Below, piece after piece: positions 1 through 49,272 of a DNA stretch of 64,000 nucleotides. The notes beneath the pieces were generated by a model. That model worked only from the letters and a program-made list of their open reading frames with translations. It did no database searches and had not been told where the DNA came from. The position numbers and the translations under genes are program-made. The DNA is from Candidatus Cloacimonadota bacterium (GTDB lineage Bacteria > Cloacimonadota > Cloacimonadia > JGIOTU-2): positions 3,318 to 67,317 of the forward strand of contig JAUWMT010000008.1 in NCBI GenBank assembly GCA_030613025.1. The letters run 5' to 3'. The number at the start of each line of letters is the position of its first letter. The first letter of the stretch is position 1.

Positions 1-2637
1 GCAGATTATAAACTTCCTTCTTTTGATGGTATGTCTGCAATAAAAATTCAACAGAAAACCACGCCTGATATTCCACTGATTATTATTTCAGGAACAATAG
101 GTGAAGAAATTGCCATTGAGTGTTTAAAAGCCGGTGCAACAGACTATGTCCTAAAAGGCAAACTCTCCAGACTTATTCCTGTTGTGAAACGTGCCCTAAA
201 AGAAACAGAAGAACGCAGAGAACGAAAAAAAGCTGAAAAAGCACTACGAAAATCGGAAGAGCAATTCCGATTAATTGCAGAAAACACAAGTGATAATATT
301 GCTATAACTACATTTGATCTGAAAGCTACCTATCTCTATCTAAGCCCTTCATTAAAATCCATGGTCGGCTATGACCTTGAAGATCTGCTTGGTAAATCCT
401 TTTTCGATTTTATCCATCCGGAAGATAAAAAGATTTTATTACCCTTATTAAAAAAATATATTAATAATAAGATCAAGAAACTTATCTCAGGAAAAGAATC
501 CATAGTTAGTGAGACAATTGAATATCGCTTCATAAATAAAGATAGAGAATGGCGTAATTTTCAAAGTACTGTAAATATCGCTGGAAAGCAACTTATTTCA
601 GTTACACGTGATGTAACAGAGCGCAAGCAGGCGGAAGAAGAATTGATACAATCTGAAAAAAGCTATCGAGATCTTTTTAACAATGCATCTGATGCCATAT
701 ACATACAGGACAGGGAAGGTCGTTTTCTTGATGTCAATCAGGGAGCAGTGGACATGTACGGTTATTCAAAGGAGTTTTTCATAGGAAAGACACCTGAATT
801 TTTATCAGCTCCGGGAAAGAACGACATGAAAAAGATCATCGGATTTGTCGAGGATGCATTTAACGGCAAAACCAGACAATATGATTTCTGGGGTATAAGA
901 AAAAACGGCGAAGTATTTCCTAAAATTGTCCGTTCCCAACAAGGTTTTTATCTGGGTCGGAAAGTCATTATTACATATGCTTTAGACATCACCGAGCAGA
1001 AGCAAGCAGAGGAAATCCAAAAAGCATTATACAACATTTCCAATGCTCTGAATACAACCGATAAAATGCGCGACTTTTACAACAAAATAAGAGAATACCT
1101 GGGAAATATGATTGACACTACCAATTTCTATGTTGCTTTATATGATGAGAAAACTGATATGATCTCTCTTCCTTTTAATGTCGATGAAAAAGATGATTTT
1201 GAAACATTTCCTGCTGGTAAGACTATCACAAAGTATGTCATCAAAACAGGCAAGTCCCTTTTTGCTACGAAGGATGTAGTAAAAAAATTAATAAAAAAAG
1301 GATTAATTGAAACAGTTGGAACACCATCTGAAATCTGGCTCGGTGTTCCCCTGAAAATTGAAAATAAAGTAATCGGTGTTATAGCAGTTCAAAGCTATGA
1401 TGATCCAAACCTCTATACAGAAAAGGATATTGAAATTCTAACCTTTATTTCCGAAGAAATTGCTCTTGCTATCAATCGCAAACAGGCAGAGGAGACTTTA
1501 AATAAAGAACTTCGTAAGCGACAAATACTCCAAGATGTGGCTTTAAGTCTTCTTGAAACAGATTTAAAAAAATCTATTAAAACCTCTTTAAAGGCAATTA
1601 GGATTGGCTTAGATCTTCCAAAAGTAATGCTAAGAATTAGAGTTGATCCTAACAATGATTGGCAAATTGTAGATTGTAGAGAAAGTTTGCTCGGAATTGG
1701 ATCAGTTTTACCTACAAACATAAGAGGGGTAGATGCAATACTGGCTTATGAAAAAAAAGAGATTTCCGTCGTTAATGATATTCGTAAAAAATATTGGTAT
1801 GAAAAACATAAAGATATTTGGGAAAAAACAAAAACACTTGCTTATCTCAGCATACCTTGTATAGATTATTCCGGTGATGTTAAAGGAATTCTCTACCTTC
1901 ATGATGATAGGGTGCGAATATGGAGTGATGATGACAAAAACATAGGGAAAGCAGTAGCAGCAGAATTAGCTTCAATCATCGAACGTAAACAGGCAGAAGA
2001 AGAATTAAAGATCAATCGGGAACGATTAAAAACAGCAAATTCAATTTTGCGTCACGACATTGCAAATGACGTTATTGTAATAAAAAGCGCTCTTGATATC
2101 TACCGTGATGAGCAGGACGAAACTATGCTTGACGAGATCGAGAAGCGAGTCGAAAAAAGTTTAAATACGATAAAAAAACAACGTGACCAGGAACAGTTCA
2201 TAGATTCTCATACAGCTTTAGATGAATATGATATGGAAAAAGTAGCACATGATATTATTAAAAATTTTCCAAATATAAAGTTTAATGTTACTGGCACGGG
2301 CAGGGCTTATGCGGACAATGCAATTTATTCAGTATTTGAGAACATAATAAGTAATGCAATTAAGCATGGCAAAACAACCAAGATGGATATTGATATTAGT
2401 TCAGATGAAGATCATTGTGAGATCAGATTTTCAGATTATGGCATTGGCATACCGGATGAAATGAAATATAAGATATTCGATGAAGGTTTCCAATATGGTG
2501 AAACAGGGCATACCGGTATTGGATTGTATATCGTACAACAAACAGTTGATGATTATGGTGGAATAGTATTTGTTGAAGATAATAAACCGAGTGGAGCAGT
2601 ATTTGTAATTCGATTGAAGAAAATTATTGAAAGATGA
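1..2637 (+). CDS. Hybrid sensor histidine kinase, 5'-truncated by the window edge. Receiver-domain C-terminus, then PAS, GAF, HisKA and HATPase domains.
   Basis: The ORF frame stays open back to position 1 (ADYKLPSFDGM, the receiver 'MPxxDG' motif), so the gene starts upstream of the window. Also seen: repeated KQAEEEL PAS linkers, a GAF-like segment, an LRHDIANDV H-box, and C-terminal GIGLYIV / G-box ATPase motifs. Confidence 0.8.
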   Translation, partial: ADYKLPSFDGMSAIKIQQKTTPDIPLIIISGTIGEEIAIECLKAGATDYVLKGKLSRLIPVVKRALKETEERRERKKAEKALRKSEEQFRLIAENTSDNIAITTFDLKATYLYLSPSLKSMVGYDLEDLLGKSFFDFIHPEDKKILLPLLKKYINNKIKKLISGKESIVSETIEYRFINKDREWRNFQSTVNIAGKQLISVTRDVTERKQAEEELIQSEKSYRDLFNNASDAIYIQDREGRFLDVNQGAVDMYGYSKEFFIGKTPEFLSAPGKNDMKKIIGFVEDAFNGKTRQYDFWGIRKNGEVFPKIVRSQQGFYLGRKVIITYALDITEQKQAEEIQKALYNISNALNTTDKMRDFYNKIREYLGNMIDTTNFYVALYDEKTDMISLPFNVDEKDDFETFPAGKTITKYVIKTGKSLFATKDVVKKLIKKGLIETVGTPSEIWLGVPLKIENKVIGVIAVQSYDDPNLYTEKDIEILTFISEEIALAINRKQAEETLNKELRKRQILQDVALSLLETDLKKSIKTSLKAIRIGLDLPKVMLRIRVDPNNDWQIVDCRESLLGIGSVLPTNIRGVDAILAYEKKEISVVNDIRKKYWYEKHKDIWEKTKTLAYLSIPCIDYSGDVKGILYLHDDRVRIWSDDDKNIGKAVAAELASIIERKQAEEELKINRERLKTANSILRHDIANDVIVIKSALDIYRDEQDETMLDEIEKRVEKSLNTIKKQRDQEQFIDSHTALDEYDMEKVAHDIIKNFPNIKFNVTGTGRAYADNAIYSVFENIISNAIKHGKTTKMDIDISSDEDHCEIRFSDYGIGIPDEMKYKIFDEGFQYGETGHTGIGLYIVQQTVDDYGGIVFVEDNKPSGAVFVIRLKKIIER

Positions 2638-2694: not shown

Positions 2695-4767
2695 ATGACC
2701 ATCTTTGAGGTTATGGAGTTAAAGTATGCAGAAGGTAGAATGTGTATTAAAAAACCAACCATTTTAGTTATAATACTTTTATTTTTTTTTCATATCTGTA
2801 CGATATTTGCAGGGGAAGTAGATTCATTAAAGAACAGATTAGAAACCGAAACAGGTGAGGGAAAGATAGAAATTTTAGACAAGTTAGCAGGAAATTATTG
2901 GGAGCTTTCTCCAAATGAAAGAATTCCATTTGCAGCACAAATGGTTGAATTATCTGAAAAACTTAAGGATCAAGGTTATAAAGCAGATGCATACAATTAT
3001 TTGGGAATAGCTTACAATCAACTTGATGAAACTCAAAAATCCATGGATTATTTCCTGAATGCATTAGATATAGCCAAACAAACTAATGATAAAGACAGAA
3101 TTGCAAAATCTTTTCTCAATCTCGGACAGGCAAATTTTTATTTGGATAATTTTGATAAAGCCCAAGAATATTTTCAAAAACTTTTGGAGATAAGAACAGA
3201 AATTGAAGATAAACAAGGTATATCCATGGCGTTAAACCAGTTAGGTACTGTTATGGCTAGAACCAAACGGTATGATGAAGCTTTAGACTATTTTTCCAAA
3301 TCCCTGATAATAAGAAAAGAGATCGATTACAAAATAGGTATTTCTCAGATATACAATAATATTGCGAATGTATATTTTGATTTAGGAGAAATGGATAACG
3401 TTCTGGAATATCGGTTACGATCATTGGAAATCGTTCGAGAATTGAATAACAAATGGGAAATGGCTATTACCACTTATAATGTTGCAGAATATTATTTATA
3501 TAATAATGAACCCGACGAAGCTTATCCGTATTTACTTGAATCACAGGAATTGGCAGAAATGCTTAATAATCAAGGATTGATCAGAGATAATACACAATTT
3601 TTTTCATGGTATTATGAATTAAAAGAGGATTATCCAAAATCGATAAAATATTTGAAAGAATATGCGAAATTAACAAAGAAGCAATTTTCCCAGGCACTAA
3701 GTGAAAAAATTGCAGAAATGCATGCAAAGTATGATGTGGACACAAAAGATAAGGAAATTGCCTTGCTTCAGAAGAATAATCAGATACATCAGCTTAACCT
3801 CTCAAAACAAAAACTTGTGATCTTCTTCTCAATATCATTCTTCATTTTGTTTATAGTTATAGGATTAATTATATTTATTAAAGACAAAAATATTGAGAAA
3901 AAACTTGAGCGAGCGGTGAGTGAGCGCACAAAGGAGCTTAAGAATGAGATTGATGAGCGAGTTCAAACTGAATTGAAATTACTACAAGCAAACGATGAAT
4001 TGACCAAGCTACAACTGAGACTGGAACAAAAGGTTGAAGACTCGATCAAACAGATACGGCAGCAGGATCACATGATAATCCGGCAGTCACGACAGGTAGC
4101 AATGGGGGAGCTCATGAACAATGTAGCCCATCATTGGAGGCAGCCGCTGGCAGCAGTTGGATTGATCGTTCAGGACATTCAGGATGCCTTTCATGCGGAT
4201 GAACTTAATGAAAAATATTTGCAGGAATCGGTTGGTGAGGCAATGAAGCAGTTGCAGCAGATGTCAAAAACAATTACGGATATTTCCGAACTTTTTATCA
4301 CAACCAAAGTTGAAAGATCTTTCAATGTAAAAGAAGAAATTGAAAGAATGATCCATGTTTTATCCCAGAATTTCAAAGCAAATAACATAAATACATATTT
4401 GGATTGCAAAGAGGATTGTACTGTTTTAGGATATCCTCATGAATTTGCGCAGGTGGTGTTCAATATCCTGACAAATGCAAAAGAAATAATCGTCCAAAGA
4501 GAATGTAAGGAAAGAAATATATTCCTGAAAGTTTCAAATGAAAATAAGATATGCAAGATCATAATTGAGGACACCGCAGGTGGAATAGATGATGAAATGA
4601 TTGACAAAATATTCGAACCATATTTTTCTACGAAAGAAAATTTAGTCGGAACAGGATTAGGTCTATATATGTCCAAAATGCTTATCGAGAAGAACATGAA
4701 AGGTTCTCTTACTGTGCAGAATACCGAAAAAGGAGCAGTGTTTACCATTGAAATCACAACCAATTAA
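2695..4767 (+). CDS. Membrane sensor histidine kinase with a periplasmic TPR-repeat sensor domain.
   Basis: TPR-like repeats (AYNYLGIAY, ALNQLGTVM, etc.), one transmembrane segment (LVIFFSISFFILFIVIGLIIFI), a coiled coil, H-box NVAHHWRQPL, and HATPase motifs (GTGLGLYMSKMLIE). A signal-peptide-like alternative start lies at 2740. Confidence 0.8.
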   Translation: MTIFEVMELKYAEGRMCIKKPTILVIILLFFFHICTIFAGEVDSLKNRLETETGEGKIEILDKLAGNYWELSPNERIPFAAQMVELSEKLKDQGYKADAYNYLGIAYNQLDETQKSMDYFLNALDIAKQTNDKDRIAKSFLNLGQANFYLDNFDKAQEYFQKLLEIRTEIEDKQGISMALNQLGTVMARTKRYDEALDYFSKSLIIRKEIDYKIGISQIYNNIANVYFDLGEMDNVLEYRLRSLEIVRELNNKWEMAITTYNVAEYYLYNNEPDEAYPYLLESQELAEMLNNQGLIRDNTQFFSWYYELKEDYPKSIKYLKEYAKLTKKQFSQALSEKIAEMHAKYDVDTKDKEIALLQKNNQIHQLNLSKQKLVIFFSISFFILFIVIGLIIFIKDKNIEKKLERAVSERTKELKNEIDERVQTELKLLQANDELTKLQLRLEQKVEDSIKQIRQQDHMIIRQSRQVAMGELMNNVAHHWRQPLAAVGLIVQDIQDAFHADELNEKYLQESVGEAMKQLQQMSKTITDISELFITTKVERSFNVKEEIERMIHVLSQNFKANNINTYLDCKEDCTVLGYPHEFAQVVFNILTNAKEIIVQRECKERNIFLKVSNENKICKIIIEDTAGGIDDEMIDKIFEPYFSTKENLVGTGLGLYMSKMLIEKNMKGSLTVQNTEKGAVFTIEITTN

Positions 4768-22890: not shown

Positions 22891-24813
22891 ATGAAAAAAA
22901 TAGCTGTACTCTTATTTTTCTTGCTTCTCTCAACAACTGCTTTTGCTGCTTATCAGGTAGGGGATGTTGTTTCGAATTTTAGCTGGACTGATAACACCGG
23001 AACGTCACATACGATCTACGATCTCATCGACGCTGAAAAGGCGATCGTGTTTTTCTGGGGAGGTGCTGGTTGAGGTGGCTGTGTAGCGGCGGCGCCGCAA
23101 TTAGAAACTATCTGGCAAAACTACCAGGGAACAGGTCATTGCTATATTCTATCAGAAAACAATTGGACTTCCTATGGAGCAACTTATTATTATTCTTATG
23201 ATATCGATCCATACTATGGTCAATATGGAAATGGTTACATTCCGTATTTTGCTGTTATTGGTGGTGAGTATAAAGTGTTTTATACAAGTACTGGTGTGAG
23301 CGGTGTAAGCGCTGGACTTGATGCTGCGATCGCATCTCTAGGATTATATGCAAACTTTACTGCTAATATTACCCAGGGACCTCCGGAACTTACTGTGCAA
23401 TTCACAAGTACATCTTCTGGAAGCCCCGACACGTGGGAATGGGACTTCAATAATGATGATACGATTGACAGCCATGAAGAAAATCCTGTCTGGACGTACA
23501 CAGCAGTCGGTTCTTACGATGTTTCTCTTACTGTATTTGAAGGAGCTGATAGCGATGAACTCATACAAGAGGACTTTATCACTGTGTTAAGTCCCACAAA
23601 TATCTCCGGTCAACTCGCAGGAACGTGGTCACCCATTTATGGAACGTACACTATTACAGGAGATGTAACTGTTCCTGTAGGTACAGTTCTCTCGATTGAA
23701 CCAAGTACAAACATTGTCGCGAATAATAACAGCAAGATCCAGATTAATGGAAGAATTGAGGCACAAGGCTCTGAACGTGGATTGGTAAATTTCTCAACAG
23801 ACGATCAATGGAAAGGTATCAAGATCATTGATAGCCAGGAAGATAATTTGATCGATTATTGCTATTTTACGGGCTCAACAGAAAGTGCAGTGGATATTGA
23901 TAATTCAACTGTCGATGTGCTGAACAGCACTTTTTATGAGAATACAAACACCTCTCAAAAAGGACCTGCTATCAATGTGTTGGATGCAAGTGATGTACTT
24001 ATAGAAGGCAATGTTATTGCAAATAATTACAGCTCGGTGCTCACCGGTGGTATTGGACTTGATAATTCAGCTTGTGTGATCTCACACAATATCATTGTGA
24101 ATAACGAAGCAAACTTTGCAGGTGCGATCGGCATGAAGAATGGTTCTGATACATCACTTATCAATAATACAATTGCGAATAACCTGGCTAACTATGCGTG
24201 CATTTACATGCTTTCTTCCTATCCGAATGTGCTTAACACGATCATTATTCATGACGGTTTGATCTTCACAACCTTTAGCAGTAATCCAATTGTTAACTAT
24301 TCTTGTATCTCAGGCGGATATTCCGGAACAGGTAATATCAGCGATGATCCGCAGTTTGTGGATCCCACTGCTGGAGATGGAAATGCGTATAATGGCTTGA
24401 TTGCGTACTGGAGTTTGCAGTCAACTTCCCCATGTATCGATACCGGCGATCCTTCCTCACCTCCTGATCCAGATGGAACGATTGCAGATATGGGTGCGTT
24501 GTACTATCATCAGCAGGTTTCAAATGACGATCCTCATAGTAATATGATCTATGTCATGCAGAATTCACCAAATCCATTCAAGGGTTCTACTTCAATATCT
24601 TATTCTTTGCCGAAAAATTCTGAGAATGCTATTATCACTATCTATAACATAAAGGGTGACATGATAAAAGAATTCACACTTGATGATTCTGAAGGTGAGA
24701 TCGTGTGGAACGGGTTTGATCAGAATAATAAAGCAGTCGCAAGCGGAGTTTATTTCTATAGACTACAAGGAGATTCCATTTCCCGGACCAGATCAATGGT
24801 CTTCATGAAATAA
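22891..24813 (+). CDS. Candidate selenoprotein of 640 aa: signal peptide, TlpA-like redoxin with UxxC active site, PKD-like domain, parallel beta-helix repeats and T9SS C-terminal sorting domain. The in-frame TGA at 23071-23073 is read as Sec.
   Basis: Track ORFs 22885..23073 and 23275..24813 are in the same frame. I translated the 200-nt gap by eye and found no other stop. Context AIVFFWGGAG-TGA-GGCV parallels the redoxin FWASWCxPC active site. A GC-rich hairpin lies 12 nt after the TGA. The gene is followed immediately by selC, selA and selB. C-terminal MQNSPNPFKGSTSISYSL...ITIYNIKGDMIKEF...GVYFYRLQ is a T9SS tail. Confidence 0.55.
23086..23098 (+). promoter_or_regulatory. SECIS-like hairpin GCGGC-GGC-GCCGC, 12 nt downstream of the in-frame UGA.
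   Basis: Self-complementary GC-rich 13-mer in otherwise AT-rich DNA. The spacing from the UGA matches the usual bacterial SECIS position. Confidence 0.45.
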
Positions 24814-24844
24814 CGTATTTCAAAAAAATAGAATAGCTTTCGGT

Positions 24845-24939
24845 TGAGAGGAAGGAACTGGTGTTCCAGCTGGTCTTCAAAATCAGTAGTGTGCGGATAA
24901 CACCGTTCATGGCAGGTTCGATTCCTGCCCTCTCGGCCA
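24845..24939 (+). tRNA. selC: tRNA-Sec (selC-like), anticodon UCA. Boundaries approximate (+/- 3 nt).
   Basis: Anticodon stem-loop GCTGGT-CTTCAAA-ATCAGT (24869-24887) with anticodon TCA. D-arm GGAAC-TGGT-GTTCC. Long extra arm. T-arm GCAGG-TTCGATT-CCTGC. 3' CCTCTCG-G-CCA pairs with 5' (T)GAGAGG. About 95 nt long. Sits between the selenoprotein gene and selA. Confidence 0.65.
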
Positions 24940-24966
24940 TTTTTTTATTTAAAAATAGGATATAAA

Positions 24967-26352
24967 ATGGATAAGAACGAACTTAAAAAAATTCCCGGAG
25001 TGGATACATTGATGAAGAACTCCGCAATCAAAAACCTCATTTCTGAATTTGGTGAAAATCTTACAGTTTTCTCGATCAGGCAAGTACTAAGTGATATTAG
25101 AGACTCAGTTCTTAAAGGAAAAAAAATTCCATCTGATGATAGAATGCTCACACTAATAAAGCAAAGAGTATATCATATTGGAATATGCTCATTAAAGCCA
25201 ATGATCAATGCGACGGGTGTTGTACTGCATACAAATCTTGGACGTGCCCCTTTGGGTTCTGCACTCACGGAAGAGGTTGCAAAAATAATTGGGGGGTATT
25301 CAAATCTTGAGTTCGATCTTGAAAAGGGGAAGCGGGGTCACAGAGAAGACCATATTACTGATCTTATTACTTTTATTACAGGCGCAGAAGATGCAGTTGT
25401 AGTAAATAATAATGCTGCCGGCGTTTATCTGTCGCTAAAAACCTTTTGTGAAAACAAGGAAGTAGTAATTTCACGAGGTGAGCTTATTGAGATCGGCGGC
25501 TCATTCCGAATACCGGACATCATACAGCAGAGCGGTGCAAAAATGGTGGAAGTCGGTACAACAAACAGGACACGGATCTCAAATTATGAAGCAGCGCTCA
25601 CGGAAGAAACTACGGTATTATTCAAAGCTCATAAATCCAATTATTATATTCAGGGATTTTCCGAAGAAGTAGAGATCGAAGCATTGGCTGAACTGGCTCA
25701 TGCTCATGGACTTGTTTGCATCTATGATTTGGGATCAGGACTGCTGCGTAAGCCGAAAGGGTTACCTCTGAACACAGAGCCGGATGTTATATCTGCACTA
25801 CAGTCAGGAGCGGATCTCGTGATGTTCAGTTGTGATAAACTGCTCGGCGGTCCTCAATCGGGCATTATTGCCGGAAAAAAGAAGTACATCCAAAAATTGA
25901 GGAAGTCGCCGCTTATGCGTGTGCTTCGTGTGGGTAAAATGACCCTTGCAGCACTTTCTACAGTGCTCCGCTGCTATTTGAAAGATGAAACTCTTCTTGA
26001 AAACGTACCTGTTTTTCGCATGCTGGATCAGACAAAAGATGAGCTTCGAGAAAAAGCAGAAAAATTCTCCGAACTCCTGAAAAAAGAGAAGATTTCCAAT
26101 AAGATTATTAAGAATACTGCACGTTGCGGTGGGGGAACTCTTCCGCAGGTTGAAATTTCCAGCTATGCAGTACAGCTCGGTCTTACAAAAACTAAGATTT
26201 CTCCCGAGCAGCTATATCATAAATTGCTACAATTAGATAAACCGATCCTTGGCATTCTCAGAGAAGGTTCGTTACTTTTTGATATGTTTACTCTTGGTAA
26301 AGTTCAGACAACCGAAATTGCAAAGCAGATCAAGAAAATGATCCAAACATAA
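24967..26352 (+). CDS. selA: L-seryl-tRNA(Sec) selenium transferase.
   Basis: Strong match to SelA signatures: INATGVVLHTNLGRAPL, ITGAEDAVVVNNNAAGV, SRGELIEIGGSFRIPD, KAHKSNY, FSCDKLLGGPQSGII, KMTLAAL. Confidence 0.9.
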   Translation: MDKNELKKIPGVDTLMKNSAIKNLISEFGENLTVFSIRQVLSDIRDSVLKGKKIPSDDRMLTLIKQRVYHIGICSLKPMINATGVVLHTNLGRAPLGSALTEEVAKIIGGYSNLEFDLEKGKRGHREDHITDLITFITGAEDAVVVNNNAAGVYLSLKTFCENKEVVISRGELIEIGGSFRIPDIIQQSGAKMVEVGTTNRTRISNYEAALTEETTVLFKAHKSNYYIQGFSEEVEIEALAELAHAHGLVCIYDLGSGLLRKPKGLPLNTEPDVISALQSGADLVMFSCDKLLGGPQSGIIAGKKKYIQKLRKSPLMRVLRVGKMTLAALSTVLRCYLKDETLLENVPVFRMLDQTKDELREKAEKFSELLKKEKISNKIIKNTARCGGGTLPQVEISSYAVQLGLTKTKISPEQLYHKLLQLDKPILGILREGSLLFDMFTLGKVQTTEIAKQIKKMIQT

Positions 26353-26353
26353 C

Positions 26354-28291
26354 ATGAAACATTTGATAATGGGCACAGCCGGTCATGTTGACCACGGGAA
26401 AACTGCGCTCATAAAAGCACTTACAAATTTTGATTGCGATACGCACAAAGACGAAAAGCAGCGCGGAATAACGATCCATCTCGGCTTTACACACCTCGAT
26501 CTGCCAAATGAGAACAGCATTGGCATTATCGATGTACCCGGGCATAAAGATTTTATCAATACTATGATCTCAGGCGCCAGTACCATTGATTTTGTGCTTT
26601 TTACAATTGCTGCAGACAGCAGTATCATGCCGCAAACAAGGGAGCATCTGCACATCATGGAGTTACTTGGGATCAAGAACGGCATAATTGCTCTCACAAA
26701 AAGTGATACGGTCGATGAAGAAATTTTAGAACTCGTTGAACTTGAGATAAGTGAATTCGTTTCCGGCACTTTCCTGGAAAATGCACCAATTATCAGAACT
26801 TCAGTCAAAGATAATACCGGCATCGAGGAGTTGTTGCGGGAACTGGAAAAAGTTACAGAACACATTGAGCAGCGTTCGGGCGGATGTTTTTTCAGAATGT
26901 ATATCGATAGAATATTCAGTGTGCAGGGATTTGGGACAGTGATCAACGGGTCTGTATTGCAGGGAAAAGCAACGAAAACGACTCCATTATATTTGCTTCC
27001 AGTAAACAAAGAGTTGCGGATCAGAAAGCTCGAACACCACGGGCAGGAAGTTCAAGAAATATATTCAGGACAGAGGGCTTCTCTTAACGTGGTCGGATTA
27101 GATATTCAGGATTTCACAAGGGGAATGCTGGTTTCTGAGAGGGTGATCAAGCCAACAAAAATAATCGATGCAGAACTCACTTTGTTTGAACACGAGAGAA
27201 CATTGGAGGTATGGAATCATGCACTCTTTCTTATGGGAACTTTTGAAGACCAGGCAAGAATACATCTGCTCGATAAGGACATTTTGCAGAGTGGAGAGAC
27301 CGGACTGGTACAGATCCATTTTGAAAAAGAGTGTTTTCCCATTTTTGGAGACTCTTTTATCATAAGAAGTACTTCTAGCGATATCACACTTGGTGGTGGA
27401 AAGATTCTCGATGCATATCCTCTTCATCATAAAAAGAGAACTCACAAGGTAATTCAACATCTTCAGCTTATTGCAAGCGGCGGTTTGCCTGCATTTCTGG
27501 CAGCAGAAGTGAGAAAACAACCCCACGCAGTTTCTCTTGCATACCTGGCTGAAATATCTAACAAAACCGACAAAGAGCTTCTTGAGATCATTAGAAAATC
27601 ATTTCCTGAAGATATTGAAACAAGGGAGTTTAACAAAGAATTGTTGCTCATCACACGCTGCATGATTGACCTTATACGAGCAGAAATAATTAAACTCCTT
27701 ACCGCTCATCATAAAGAAAATCCACTCATCAAAAAAGGAAAAACTTTCGATGAAATGTGCAGTATGTTGAATATGAAAAATGCCAATGACAGTACGCTAT
27801 TGGGAATACTATTAGAAGAAATGGTTCGGGATAACCAGCTTGCCAAAGTTAATGGAACTTTTGCCCTTTTAGATAGGGCAGTCACACTTTCGCATGAGGA
27901 AATGCAGAAGATTGAAAAAGTAGATCAGTACTTGCTGAATTTCGGAATGAAAGTGCCGATGATAAATGAGATAAGAGCATTTGCAGAAGGCGAGCAGATC
28001 TCGTCAAAAGAGTTGAATAATATCCTCAGCTATCTTATCGAAAATAAAAAAGTCTTAACAATTGAGGGTTCGTTCATTCATGCTGAGATCATAAAAAAAG
28101 CGGAGAAGGTTTTGTTGCAGCATTTCAAGAAAAATGACAAGCTGATCCTTGCTGATTTTCGTGACCAGTTACAAGCAAACAGAAAGATCTGCCTGCTGCT
28201 TCTCTCCTATTTTGATGATAAGGGATGGACGGTTCGTAAAGGGGATTATCGTATATTATCCGAAAAAGGAAAACAATTATTGAGCAGATAG
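26354..28291 (+). CDS. selB: Selenocysteine-specific elongation factor SelB.
   Basis: N-terminal GTPase motifs [23 protein letters not shown], then an EF-Tu-like beta-barrel and extended C-terminal winged-helix region. About 645 aa, typical of SelB. Confidence 0.9.
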   Translation: MKHLIMGTAGHVDHGKTALIKALTNFDCDTHKDEKQRGITIHLGFTHLDLPNENSIGIIDVPGHKDFINTMISGASTIDFVLFTIAADSSIMPQTREHLHIMELLGIKNGIIALTKSDTVDEEILELVELEISEFVSGTFLENAPIIRTSVKDNTGIEELLRELEKVTEHIEQRSGGCFFRMYIDRIFSVQGFGTVINGSVLQGKATKTTPLYLLPVNKELRIRKLEHHGQEVQEIYSGQRASLNVVGLDIQDFTRGMLVSERVIKPTKIIDAELTLFEHERTLEVWNHALFLMGTFEDQARIHLLDKDILQSGETGLVQIHFEKECFPIFGDSFIIRSTSSDITLGGGKILDAYPLHHKKRTHKVIQHLQLIASGGLPAFLAAEVRKQPHAVSLAYLAEISNKTDKELLEIIRKSFPEDIETREFNKELLLITRCMIDLIRAEIIKLLTAHHKENPLIKKGKTFDEMCSMLNMKNANDSTLLGILLEEMVRDNQLAKVNGTFALLDRAVTLSHEEMQKIEKVDQYLLNFGMKVPMINEIRAFAEGEQISSKELNNILSYLIENKKVLTIEGSFIHAEIIKKAEKVLLQHFKKNDKLILADFRDQLQANRKICLLLLSYFDDKGWTVRKGDYRILSEKGKQLLSR

Positions 28292-47073: not shown

Positions 47074-49272
47074 ATGAAGCCAATTTATCTCGACTATAAT
47101 GCAACGACACCTCTCGCACCGGAAGTGGCGGAAGCAATGAAGCCATATCTGGAAAATTATTTTGGCAATCCGTCGAGCGCTCACTGGTACGGAGTGCAGA
47201 CAAAAAAGGCAGTTGAAAACGCACGCAGGCAGGTTGCGGAACTTATTAATGCAAATCCAGATGAGATCATTTTTACAAGCGGGGGTTCGGAATCCAATAA
47301 TTTTGCAATAAAGGGGATCGCCTTTGTAAAGAGATCGCAGGGAAACCATATCATTACTTCGTCTGTAGAACATCCTGCAGTTATCGAAGTATGCGAGTAT
47401 CTCAAAACACAGGGATTTGAAATAAGCTATCTGCCAGTTGACGAATACGGAATGGTCGATCCAAATGATGTAGAAAAGGCGATCACTCCGCAGACAATAC
47501 TTATCACAATAATGCATGCAAATAATGAAGTTGGCACTATTCAGCCAGTAAGAGAAATTGCTGAGATCGCACATGTTCATGATATTATTATGCATACTGA
47601 CGCAGCCCAGTCCACAGGAAAAATTCCTGTTCTAATTGATGAGCTTGGCGTTGATCTGCTTTCCATTGCCGGTCATAAACTGTATGGACCGAAAGGGATA
47701 GGTGCACTCTATATTCGAAGAGGAGTGAAACTACAAAAGATCATTCACGGCGCAGATCATGAACAAAATTTACGAGCCGGCACAGAAAATATTTTATGTG
47801 ATGTCGGTCTGGGAAAAGCATGCGAAATAGCAGGTCAAAATTTACAGAAAAATATACAGCACATGAAAGAAATGAGGGATCTGCTTCATAAAAAAATTGA
47901 AGCTTCGGGGCTTGATTTCAGATTGAACGGTCACCCTGAAAAAAGATTACCGAACACACTCAGTCTTTCCTTCAGAAATGTGGAAGCAAATACTGTTCTT
48001 TCCGAGCTAACAGAGGTTGCGGCATCAGCAGGCGCGGCATGTCATTCCGACCAGATCGATGTGTCTACTGTACTGGAAGCAATGAAAGTACCTCTAGAAT
48101 ATGCAATGGGGACGATACGTTTTTCCACCGGTCGATTTACTACGAAAGCAGAGATAGAACAAGCTGCAGATAAGATCATAAAAGTTATCAGTAAATTTCA
48201 GGATAAAAAAGTAGAAATACCTCAACAGGATGATGCTGAGATCAAGCTCACACATTTTACTCACGGCATGGGCTGTGCTTGCAAGATAGAACCGGCTCTG
48301 CTGGAGGAAATTCTAAAAAAACTTCCAATTCCTGACGATCCTGATATTTTGGTTGGCACACAAACGTCTGACGATGCTGCCGTTTACCGGATAAATGATG
48401 AAACTGCGCTTGTAGTTACGTTGGATTTTTTCACACCAATTGCTGACGATCCTTATGAATTTGGTGCTATTGCTGCAGCAAATGCGCTAAGTGATGTTTA
48501 TGCAATGGGTGCAACTCCTTTATTCGGATTGAACATTGTCGGATTTCCCTCAAACAGATTACCTATGTCCGTATTGGAAAAAATTCTAAATGGAGCACAG
48601 GATAAAGCTCGGGAAGCAGGTATTTTCGTAATCGGCGGTCATACGATCGAGGATACAGAGCCCAAATATGGAATGGTTGTAGTCGGGCAAGTTCAGCCAA
48701 AAAAGATCTGGAAGAATGTCGGGTTGCAGAAAGATGATGTGCTTATTTTCACCAAACCCATTGGAACGGGCATTCTTTCAACTGCATTAAAAAGAGGTTT
48801 ACTCGATGAAACGCAAAAGGACTTGTTGATCTCATCAATGACAGAATTGAATAAAAAAGCTGCAAATGTACTTCAAAATTATCCGGTTCATGCATGTACT
48901 GACGTAACAGGTTTCGGACTTCTCGGGCATCTTATGGAGATGGTGCAGGGTAGCAAAGTTGCTGTTGAGATCAAAGCTGACAATGTTCCCATTCTTGATG
49001 GTGCTCTTGAATTTGCAGCCGGCAACGTCATACCGGGTGGAACGCTGTCCAATATGAAATTTGTCGAGGATATTGTTGAGTGGAGTTCAAATATTTCTCA
49101 GATCCAGAAAATCATACTGTGCGATGCTCAGACATCAGGAGGTTTGCTCGCTGCAGTTCCGGAAAAGGAATCGCAAAAGGTGCTGAAGTCATTGCATGAT
49201 TCCGGAATCACTCATGCATGTATGATAGGAAAAGTCATAGGAAGTGGTTCTGAGCTCATCAAAGTAACCTGA
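47074..49272 (+). CDS. selD: Fusion protein: NifS/IscS-like cysteine (selenocysteine) desulfurase joined to selenophosphate synthetase SelD.
   Basis: N-terminal class-V aminotransferase domain ([37 protein letters not shown] with PLP-Lys, AGACHSD). C-terminal SelD domain (LTHFTHGMGCACKIEP matches SelD LTQYSHGAGCGCKISP; later DAAV...D..LVVTLDFFTP, GGHT). 732 aa. Confidence 0.85.
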   Translation: MKPIYLDYNATTPLAPEVAEAMKPYLENYFGNPSSAHWYGVQTKKAVENARRQVAELINANPDEIIFTSGGSESNNFAIKGIAFVKRSQGNHIITSSVEHPAVIEVCEYLKTQGFEISYLPVDEYGMVDPNDVEKAITPQTILITIMHANNEVGTIQPVREIAEIAHVHDIIMHTDAAQSTGKIPVLIDELGVDLLSIAGHKLYGPKGIGALYIRRGVKLQKIIHGADHEQNLRAGTENILCDVGLGKACEIAGQNLQKNIQHMKEMRDLLHKKIEASGLDFRLNGHPEKRLPNTLSLSFRNVEANTVLSELTEVAASAGAACHSDQIDVSTVLEAMKVPLEYAMGTIRFSTGRFTTKAEIEQAADKIIKVISKFQDKKVEIPQQDDAEIKLTHFTHGMGCACKIEPALLEEILKKLPIPDDPDILVGTQTSDDAAVYRINDETALVVTLDFFTPIADDPYEFGAIAAANALSDVYAMGATPLFGLNIVGFPSNRLPMSVLEKILNGAQDKAREAGIFVIGGHTIEDTEPKYGMVVVGQVQPKKIWKNVGLQKDDVLIFTKPIGTGILSTALKRGLLDETQKDLLISSMTELNKKAANVLQNYPVHACTDVTGFGLLGHLMEMVQGSKVAVEIKADNVPILDGALEFAAGNVIPGGTLSNMKFVEDIVEWSSNISQIQKIILCDAQTSGGLLAAVPEKESQKVLKSLHDSGITHACMIGKVIGSGSELIKVT

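Follow-up and report, generated by a model that had tools for sequence, protein, structure and literature searches.

A predicted selC gene of the 12-bp (7/5) tRNASec type upstream of selA and selB in an uncultured Cloacimonadota bacterium

Does the short gap between a candidate selenoprotein gene and selA in a Cloacimonadota genome hold a gene for tRNASec, and if it does, which nucleotides begin and end the mature molecule? The original prediction, made for the 64-kb stretch of DNA analysed here (the window), had placed a tRNA-Sec-like gene with anticodon UCA in a gap of about 150 bp; by our coordinates the gap measures 153 bp, from the upstream stop at 24813 to the selA start at 24967. The genes and sites concerned are as follows.

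22891..24813, + strand: candidate selenoprotein gene with one in-frame TGA (translation, Pfam, and full-length alignment through the TGA with orthologues from many related contigs)
23071..23073, + strand: in-frame TGA, putative Sec codon, in the motif G-A-G-U-G-G-C
23086..23098, + strand: candidate SECIS hairpin GCGGC-GGC-GCCGC, 12 nt after the TGA, nucleotide-invariant in the window and 13 orthologues
24845..24939, + strand: predicted selC (ARAGORN, RF01852, covariation in 37 relatives)
24967..26352, + strand: selA, L-seryl-tRNA(Sec) selenium transferase (TIGR00474, 544 bits against a cut-off of 268, full profile length)
26354..28291, + strand: selB, Sec-specific elongation factor (TIGR00475, 335 bits against a cut-off of 242, profile positions 2-579 of 581)
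47074..49272, + strand: nifS-selD fusion of 732 aa (selD by TIGR00476, 398 bits against a cut-off of 125, residues 391-699; NifS/IscS-like in residues 4-375)

On the + strand, ARAGORN placed a tRNA-SeC (anticodon tca) with the very ends of the original prediction, 24845..24939, and it reported no other tRNA in the window. The Rfam model of tRNA-Sec (RF01852) matched 24842..24938 at 56.8 bits (gathering score 47, E = 7.6e-09) and was the only Rfam family in the window to reach its own gathering score; a tRNA predictor and a tRNA-Sec covariance model, both suggested at the outset as checks, therefore each returned the expected family. The minimum-energy fold of the region is a cloverleaf of -43.7 kcal/mol (z = -4.55); of 200 shuffles, not one reached this stability. 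Direct reading of the sequence agrees with ARAGORN on a length of 95 nt, the anticodon UCA and an encoded CCA. The arms and flanks of the gene are laid out as below.

24842..24844, + strand: 5' leader GGU, complementary to G73-C74-C75 (the minimum-energy fold pairs 24842-51 with 24929-38)
24845..24851, + strand: 5' acceptor strand UGAGAGG, 7 bp with 24929..24935, first pair U1:G72
24852..24868, + strand: linker base A24852, then the D arm AGGAAC-UGGU-GUUCCA, whose 4-nt loop sits on five Watson-Crick pairs closed by A.A
24869..24887, + strand: anticodon arm, 6-bp stem GCUGGU/AUCAGU, loop CUUCAAA, with UCA at 24877..24879
24888..24911, + strand: long variable (extra) arm of 24 nt, 8-position stem with one U.U mismatch in the window copy, 6-nt loop
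24912..24928, + strand: T arm GCAGG-UUCGAUU-CCUGC, 5-bp stem (sequence and covariation)
24929..24939, + strand: 3' acceptor strand CCUCUCG (24929-35), discriminator G73 (24936) and CCA (24937-39) (sequence and relatives)
24940..24946, + strand: run of seven T directly after the CCA, conserved in the clade of the window

Every arm listed by the original prediction is present in 24845..24939 as it had been described, with U:G as the first pair. Among the features by which a tRNASec is recognised, the anticodon UCA lies in the 7-nt loop C-U-UCA-A-A, the 4-nt D loop UGGU caps a long D stem whose sixth pair is non-canonical (A.A), the variable arm is very long at 24 nt, the discriminator is G73 (G24936), and the genome has selA, selB and selD together with at least one gene containing an in-frame UGA. 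The exception is the 13-bp (8/5) acceptor plus T helix, in place of which the best-supported fold has 7/5, or 12 bp. A 13-bp helix is typical of tRNASec but not obligatory, because natural 12-bp tRNASec are documented (PMC5330540); for the same reason the proposal that a tRNA lacking this helix should not count as tRNA-Sec does not stand. A simple terminator scan called no terminator after selC despite the T run at 24940..24946. Such a run is also seen directly after tRNA-Arg genes in two related contigs (L007 and L008).

Relatives of the gene were collected by a pattern scan of metagenome contigs, which yielded 37 distinct tRNA-plus-flank sequences, representing 27 distinct genes, in a gap-free alignment. 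Across the whole cloverleaf 92% of cells are paired and 16 pairs are altered on both sides, values that none of 500 shuffles reached. Arm by arm, pairing in the 37 relatives amounts to 98.5% in the 7-bp acceptor (both partners replaced in 5 of 7 pairs), 99.5% in the 5-bp T stem (2 pairs so changed), 100% in the 6-bp anticodon stem (2 pairs) and 91.6% in the extra-arm stem (3 pairs). Five pairs of the D stem form in all 37 sequences; at the position that closes the stem, columns 14:29 of the alignment give U:A in seven sequences and no pair in 30. From its public relatives the window copy differs by one or two bases, located in the extra arm. Covariation, fold, ARAGORN and RF01852 together bear out the claim of a tRNA-Sec-like gene with anticodon UCA.

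A pseudogene was rejected, the sequence being conserved with compensatory changes. The same evidence bears on the reading of 24845..24939 as a decayed or otherwise non-functional remnant of selC, a reading that could draw on the U:G first pair, the U.U mismatch in the extra arm, the A.A closing the D stem and the missing 13-bp helix. These supposed defects are common to members of the set, however, and compensatory changes extend across contigs that sample the phylum; moreover, intact selA and selB adjoin the gene, the TGA-containing gene is conserved alongside it, and a relative that is genuinely disrupted, in its 5' half, looks quite different (L056). We judge decay to be extremely improbable. 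In L056 (JFJP01020313.1, region 2786..2833) the 5' acceptor strand is replaced by an unrelated GCCTCAC, which cannot pair with the 3' strand, and this copy is probably a truncated or rearranged selC.

One relative departs from the rest in its anticodon. The tRNA at 862..956 of L011 (CAZUGB010000112.1, a Cloacimonadota MAG) belongs to the same 7/5 family and has G73, an A1.G72 mismatch and the anticodon GCA, which reads a Cys codon. Directly downstream of it come selA (959..2344) and selB (from 2356 to where the contig stops); ARAGORN labels it tRNA-Cys, and it scores 53.6 bits with the Rfam tRNA-Sec model. Sense-codon tRNASec were reportedly described by Mukai et al. in 2016.

Whether the acceptor and T helices should be read as 7/5 or 8/5 had been left ambiguous in the original prediction. 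The ambiguity is real in the sequence and in the predictors, and resolves to 7/5 with the 37 relatives and the published type. Its source is the leader GGU (24842-44), whose complementarity to G73-C74-C75 lets the precursor form a 10-bp helix: the minimum-energy fold has this 10-bp stem, and the mixed Rfam model forces 9 bp. ARAGORN begins the window tRNA at U1, yet begins that of L004, identical but for one base at another place, one base earlier, and across the family it returns lengths from 93 to 97 nt with acceptor stems of 7 bp or longer (L012, L047, L070 and L074 included). Given these inconsistent ends from ARAGORN and Rfam, the predictors alone do not fix the termini, hence the comparison with relatives.

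In that comparison, the 1:72 pair (alignment columns 6 and 96; window positions 24845 and 24935) is A:U in 20 sequences, U:G in 10 (the clade of the window), G:U in four and mismatched in three. The G:C pair is never seen at 1:72 in this 37-member family, whereas E. coli selC has G1:C72. G73 is invariant (37/37), and CCA follows it directly in 9 of the 27 distinct genes, against a rough expectation of about 1.6, which is our own estimate and not a computed control; the genes without an encoded CCA read GCAA, GCTA, GCGT or GTTT from G73 on. C74 is kept in 26 of the 27 distinct genes, although the full CCA occurs in only nine, and positions 75 and 76 are otherwise free (alignment columns 97-100, window 24936..24939). 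At position -1, a U or C able to pair with G73 is found in 33/37 relatives (23/27 distinct) and a purine (A or G) in four. The further pairs -2:74 and -3:75 form in 14/37 and 20/37 relatives, mainly in the clade of the window, and the GGU leader is conserved only within that clade. As background for the positions flanking the gene, the 417 kb of related loci contained only three non-Sec tRNAs, too few to give a frequency at -1 or at 3' ends.

These observations can be read in a second way, as the same tRNA-Sec cut by RNase P one base further upstream, so that the mature molecule would begin with U24844 (-1) paired to G24936, in the manner of G-1:C73 in tRNA-His, and would have an 8-bp acceptor and a 13-bp 8/5 helix. 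E. coli RNase P cleaves the precursors of tRNA-His and tRNA-Sec such that 8 bp remain. The prevalence of a pyrimidine at -1 fits such a cut, as do the conservation of C74 even where no CCA is encoded, the pairing of the clade-conserved leader with G73-C74-C75, and the absence of G:C at 1:72; all three sequences with a mismatched 1:72 (L011, L015 and L047) have C:G or U:G at -1:73, and ARAGORN itself chooses an 8-bp acceptor for L004 and L015. The extended acceptor would leave either no free discriminator before the CCA or C74 in that role. Against it, G73 is invariant, so that -1:73 offers no covariation; a purine, A or G, stands at -1 in four of the relatives; and the strong enrichment of a full CCA after G73 marks that base as an unpaired discriminator. 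Bacterial RNase P substrates in general prefer a pyrimidine, especially U, at -1, which also counts against the longer acceptor. Finally, G73 is reported as the tRNASec discriminator in all domains and the published class is 7/5 (PMC5330540). Weighing both sides, we think the upstream cut unlikely. If it were true, Y(-1):G73 would restore the 13 bp measured by SelA and SelB but would use up the free discriminator, which would be a new way to make a tRNASec.

In the best reading of the sequence, the acceptor thus has 7 bp, G73 is left free as the discriminator, and acceptor and T stem together make 12 bp, on the grounds of 98.5% pairing in the acceptor, covariation at 1:72, the invariant G73, the enrichment of CCA and the purine at -1 in four relatives. 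The conserved C74 is left unexplained by the 7/5 reading; the weak U:G first pair and the absence of the canonical 13-bp helix also speak against full confidence. We are nonetheless highly confident in assigning 24845..24939 as selC, a functional-looking tRNA-Sec gene of an uncultured Cloacimonadota bacterium with a 7/5 fold, whose mature product most likely runs from U24845 to the CCA that ends at 24939.

How does this tRNA compare with those already known? For E. coli selC we used a sequence confirmed against 5,425 E. coli genomes, in which it is annotated as tRNA-Sec. The two genes agree in length (95 nt) and in the loop CUUCAAA. In both, G:U closes a 6-bp anticodon stem, the D stem is long and its loop has 4 nt, and the extra arm is long; both have the T stem GCAGG..., with most of the T arm in common, and both encode a CCA after G73. 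They differ in the acceptor (7 bp in the window, 8 in E. coli), the acceptor/T helix (12 bp against 13), the linker (one base against two), the extra arm (24 nt against 21), the first pair (U:G against G:C) and the D stem, which is closed by A.A in the window. E. coli selC was taken as the 8/5 control because the minimum-energy folds of proteobacterial selC gave only seven acceptor pairs. The selC genes in question lie beside distant SelA homologues (L020, L021, L025, L028, L034 and L035) and are given 96 nt by ARAGORN; their seven-pair folds are consistent with the published 12-bp types that have an extra linker nucleotide (position 7a).

Mukai et al. (2016) described the closest match, the Cloacimonetes-type tRNASec; as summarised in PMC5330540, this type has 12 bp (7 + 5) and one linker nucleotide fewer. 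All three of its marks recur here: the 7/5 helix, with G73 and the anticodon UCA; the linker one nucleotide short, with the single base A24852 before a 6-position D stem, where E. coli has GU (leaving A.A out of the count of pairs gives a linker of 2 nt and a D stem of 5 bp); and the host phylum, SelA of the window being 86-88% identical to that of Cloacimonadota MAGs and of a single-cell genome. We see no difference of substance, with the qualification that identity with the published Cloacimonetes-type sequences rests on the secondary description in PMC5330540. Santesmasses, Mariotti and Guigo (2017) added 47 bacterial 7/5 candidates with a conserved G73, a base that Secmarker had initially misplaced in such candidates, and found these selC genes, with few exceptions, close to selA and selB (PMC5330540). 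The existence of 12-bp bacterial tRNASec was confirmed by Mukai et al. in 2017 (PMC5389517). Other natural 12-bp tRNASec, which lie in selABC operons (PMC5330540), resemble the gene of the window in helix length, G73 and proximity to selA/selB (PMC5330540; PMC5389517); they comprise 7/5 forms in Gammaproteobacteria, Clostridiales, Spirochaetes and others, a form with a bulge in Epsilonproteobacteria, and 8/4 forms in Actinobacteria and Chloroflexi. Those types compensate in other ways, for example by a bulge in the acceptor or the anticodon stem, by a position 7a or by an 8/4 layout; in the window tRNA the 7/5 helix is uninterrupted and has no bulge. A selC with a 7/5 fold and linkage to selAB is therefore an already described type and an ordinary find.

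The 12-bp helix also raises the matter of identity. For the SelA of E. coli, a helix of 13 bp serves as an identity element, and SelB recognises this helix efficiently; the SelA of A. salmonicida recognises the branch structure of a 12-bp tRNA (reviewed in 2023, PMC10778597). Since 12 bp is also the canonical length compatible with EF-Tu (PMC10778597), and tRNASec-like tRNAs of other identity exist (PMC5389517), the gene might be imagined to encode a UGA suppressor, either serylated and left unconverted in the manner of a tRNA-Ser or allo-tRNA, or cysteinylated like selC* tRNACys, with UGA then read as Ser or Cys. The selC* tRNACys and the allo-tRNAs do resemble our gene in general tRNASec-like shape, with an extra arm and an anticodon stem that are both long, and some of them have UCA. 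By definition, though, selC* tRNACys has U73 and Cys identity, and allo-tRNAs have 8/4 or 9/3 helices (PMC5389517). The former was ruled out by G73, present in the window and in all relatives, and the latter by a T stem of 5 bp (99.5% paired) with an acceptor of 7 bp. The same two features weigh against a suppressor of either kind, as do the RF01852 score above threshold, the intact selA and selB immediately downstream and the presence of selD. We regard a suppressor as very unlikely, and keep to the assignment as tRNA-Sec.

The neighbourhood agrees with that assignment. SelA, SelB and SelD all score above their NCBIfam equivalog cut-offs; selA starts 27 nt after the tRNA and selB 1 nt after the end of selA. 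Coordinates and profiles uphold the statement that four Sec elements (selenoprotein gene, selC, selA and selB) fall within 5.4 kb, and also the description of selD as a nifS fusion, which starts 18.8 kb past the end of selB and has the 398-bit match to TIGR00476 given above. Its SelD domain (selenide, water dikinase) is the Cys form, with the motif GCACK, and its N-terminal part is cysteine-desulfurase-like. What could not be sustained is the view that the arrangement is unusually compact: selC beside selA/selB is usual (PMC5330540) and recurs in Cloacimonadota loci, a Sec-type tRNA adjoining selA in L001-L004, L006, L011, L012 and L015. The closest SelA proteins (79-88% identity) come from Cloacimonadota MAGs and the single-cell genome SCGC AAA252-N17, and a near-identical tRNA-Sec occupies the same place in five of the six closest SelA loci, the sixth (L005) having too little upstream sequence. 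More distant Cloacimonadota SelA homologues (L007, L008, L009 and L010, at 55-57% identity) have neither a tRNA-Sec upstream nor selB within the fetched flanks, and in L007 and L008 a tRNA-Arg(ACG) lies upstream of the gene for the SelA homologue.

On the other side of selC, the candidate selenoprotein gene that had been proposed there indeed has one in-frame TGA, kept in 13 orthologues. Its frame is open from 22885, and translation probably begins with the ATG at 22891, which has AGGAGG ahead of it. With Cys substituted for Sec, the product of 22891..24813 has a signal-peptide-like N-terminus and Pfam matches to PKD, right-handed beta-helix and a T9SS C-terminal sorting domain; its N-terminal domain, of thioredoxin fold, gives weak AhpC/Redoxin matches around the U-G-G-C motif. 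From this architecture the product looks exported, and may be a cell-surface or secreted Sec protein. In 13/13 orthologous loci the aligned position has TGA and the motif is U-x-x-C each time, whereas the codons next to it vary. The 12 nt ahead of the candidate hairpin at 23086..23098 also vary among orthologues, and the hairpin itself does not change in any of them. In folding energy, the 55 nt after the TGA are no more stable than shuffles; because this energy is unremarkable, the putative SECIS assignment rests on nucleotide conservation. There is good evidence, taking these comparisons together, that TGA 23071 is a Sec codon with a SECIS-like hairpin. A scan of the 64-kb window for further single-TGA read-through genes returned only 22891..24813, two other hits having been discarded as antisense artefacts within selB and within a DNA polymerase IV-like (IMS/impB family) gene.

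By analogy with the established bacterial pathway, SerRS would charge the tRNA with serine, recognising the long extra arm and G73, and SelA would convert the serine to Sec with selenophosphate from the NifS-SelD fusion, in which the NifS-like domain plausibly supplies selenide to the SelD domain. SelB would then bring the Sec-tRNA to those UGA codons that have a hairpin behind them, of which UGA 23071 would be one.

The main value of the finding lies in annotation. Natural 12-bp tRNASec break the 13-bp rule, and the ends given by predictors are inconsistent, so the predicted coordinates of a 12-bp tRNASec are not to be trusted to the base. For the organism, the assignment of selC means that this Cloacimonadota genome would have a complete Sec system, in which selC, selA, selB and nifS-selD are joined by one or more genes containing UGA, and with such a system TGA 23071 should be read as Sec and not as a stop.
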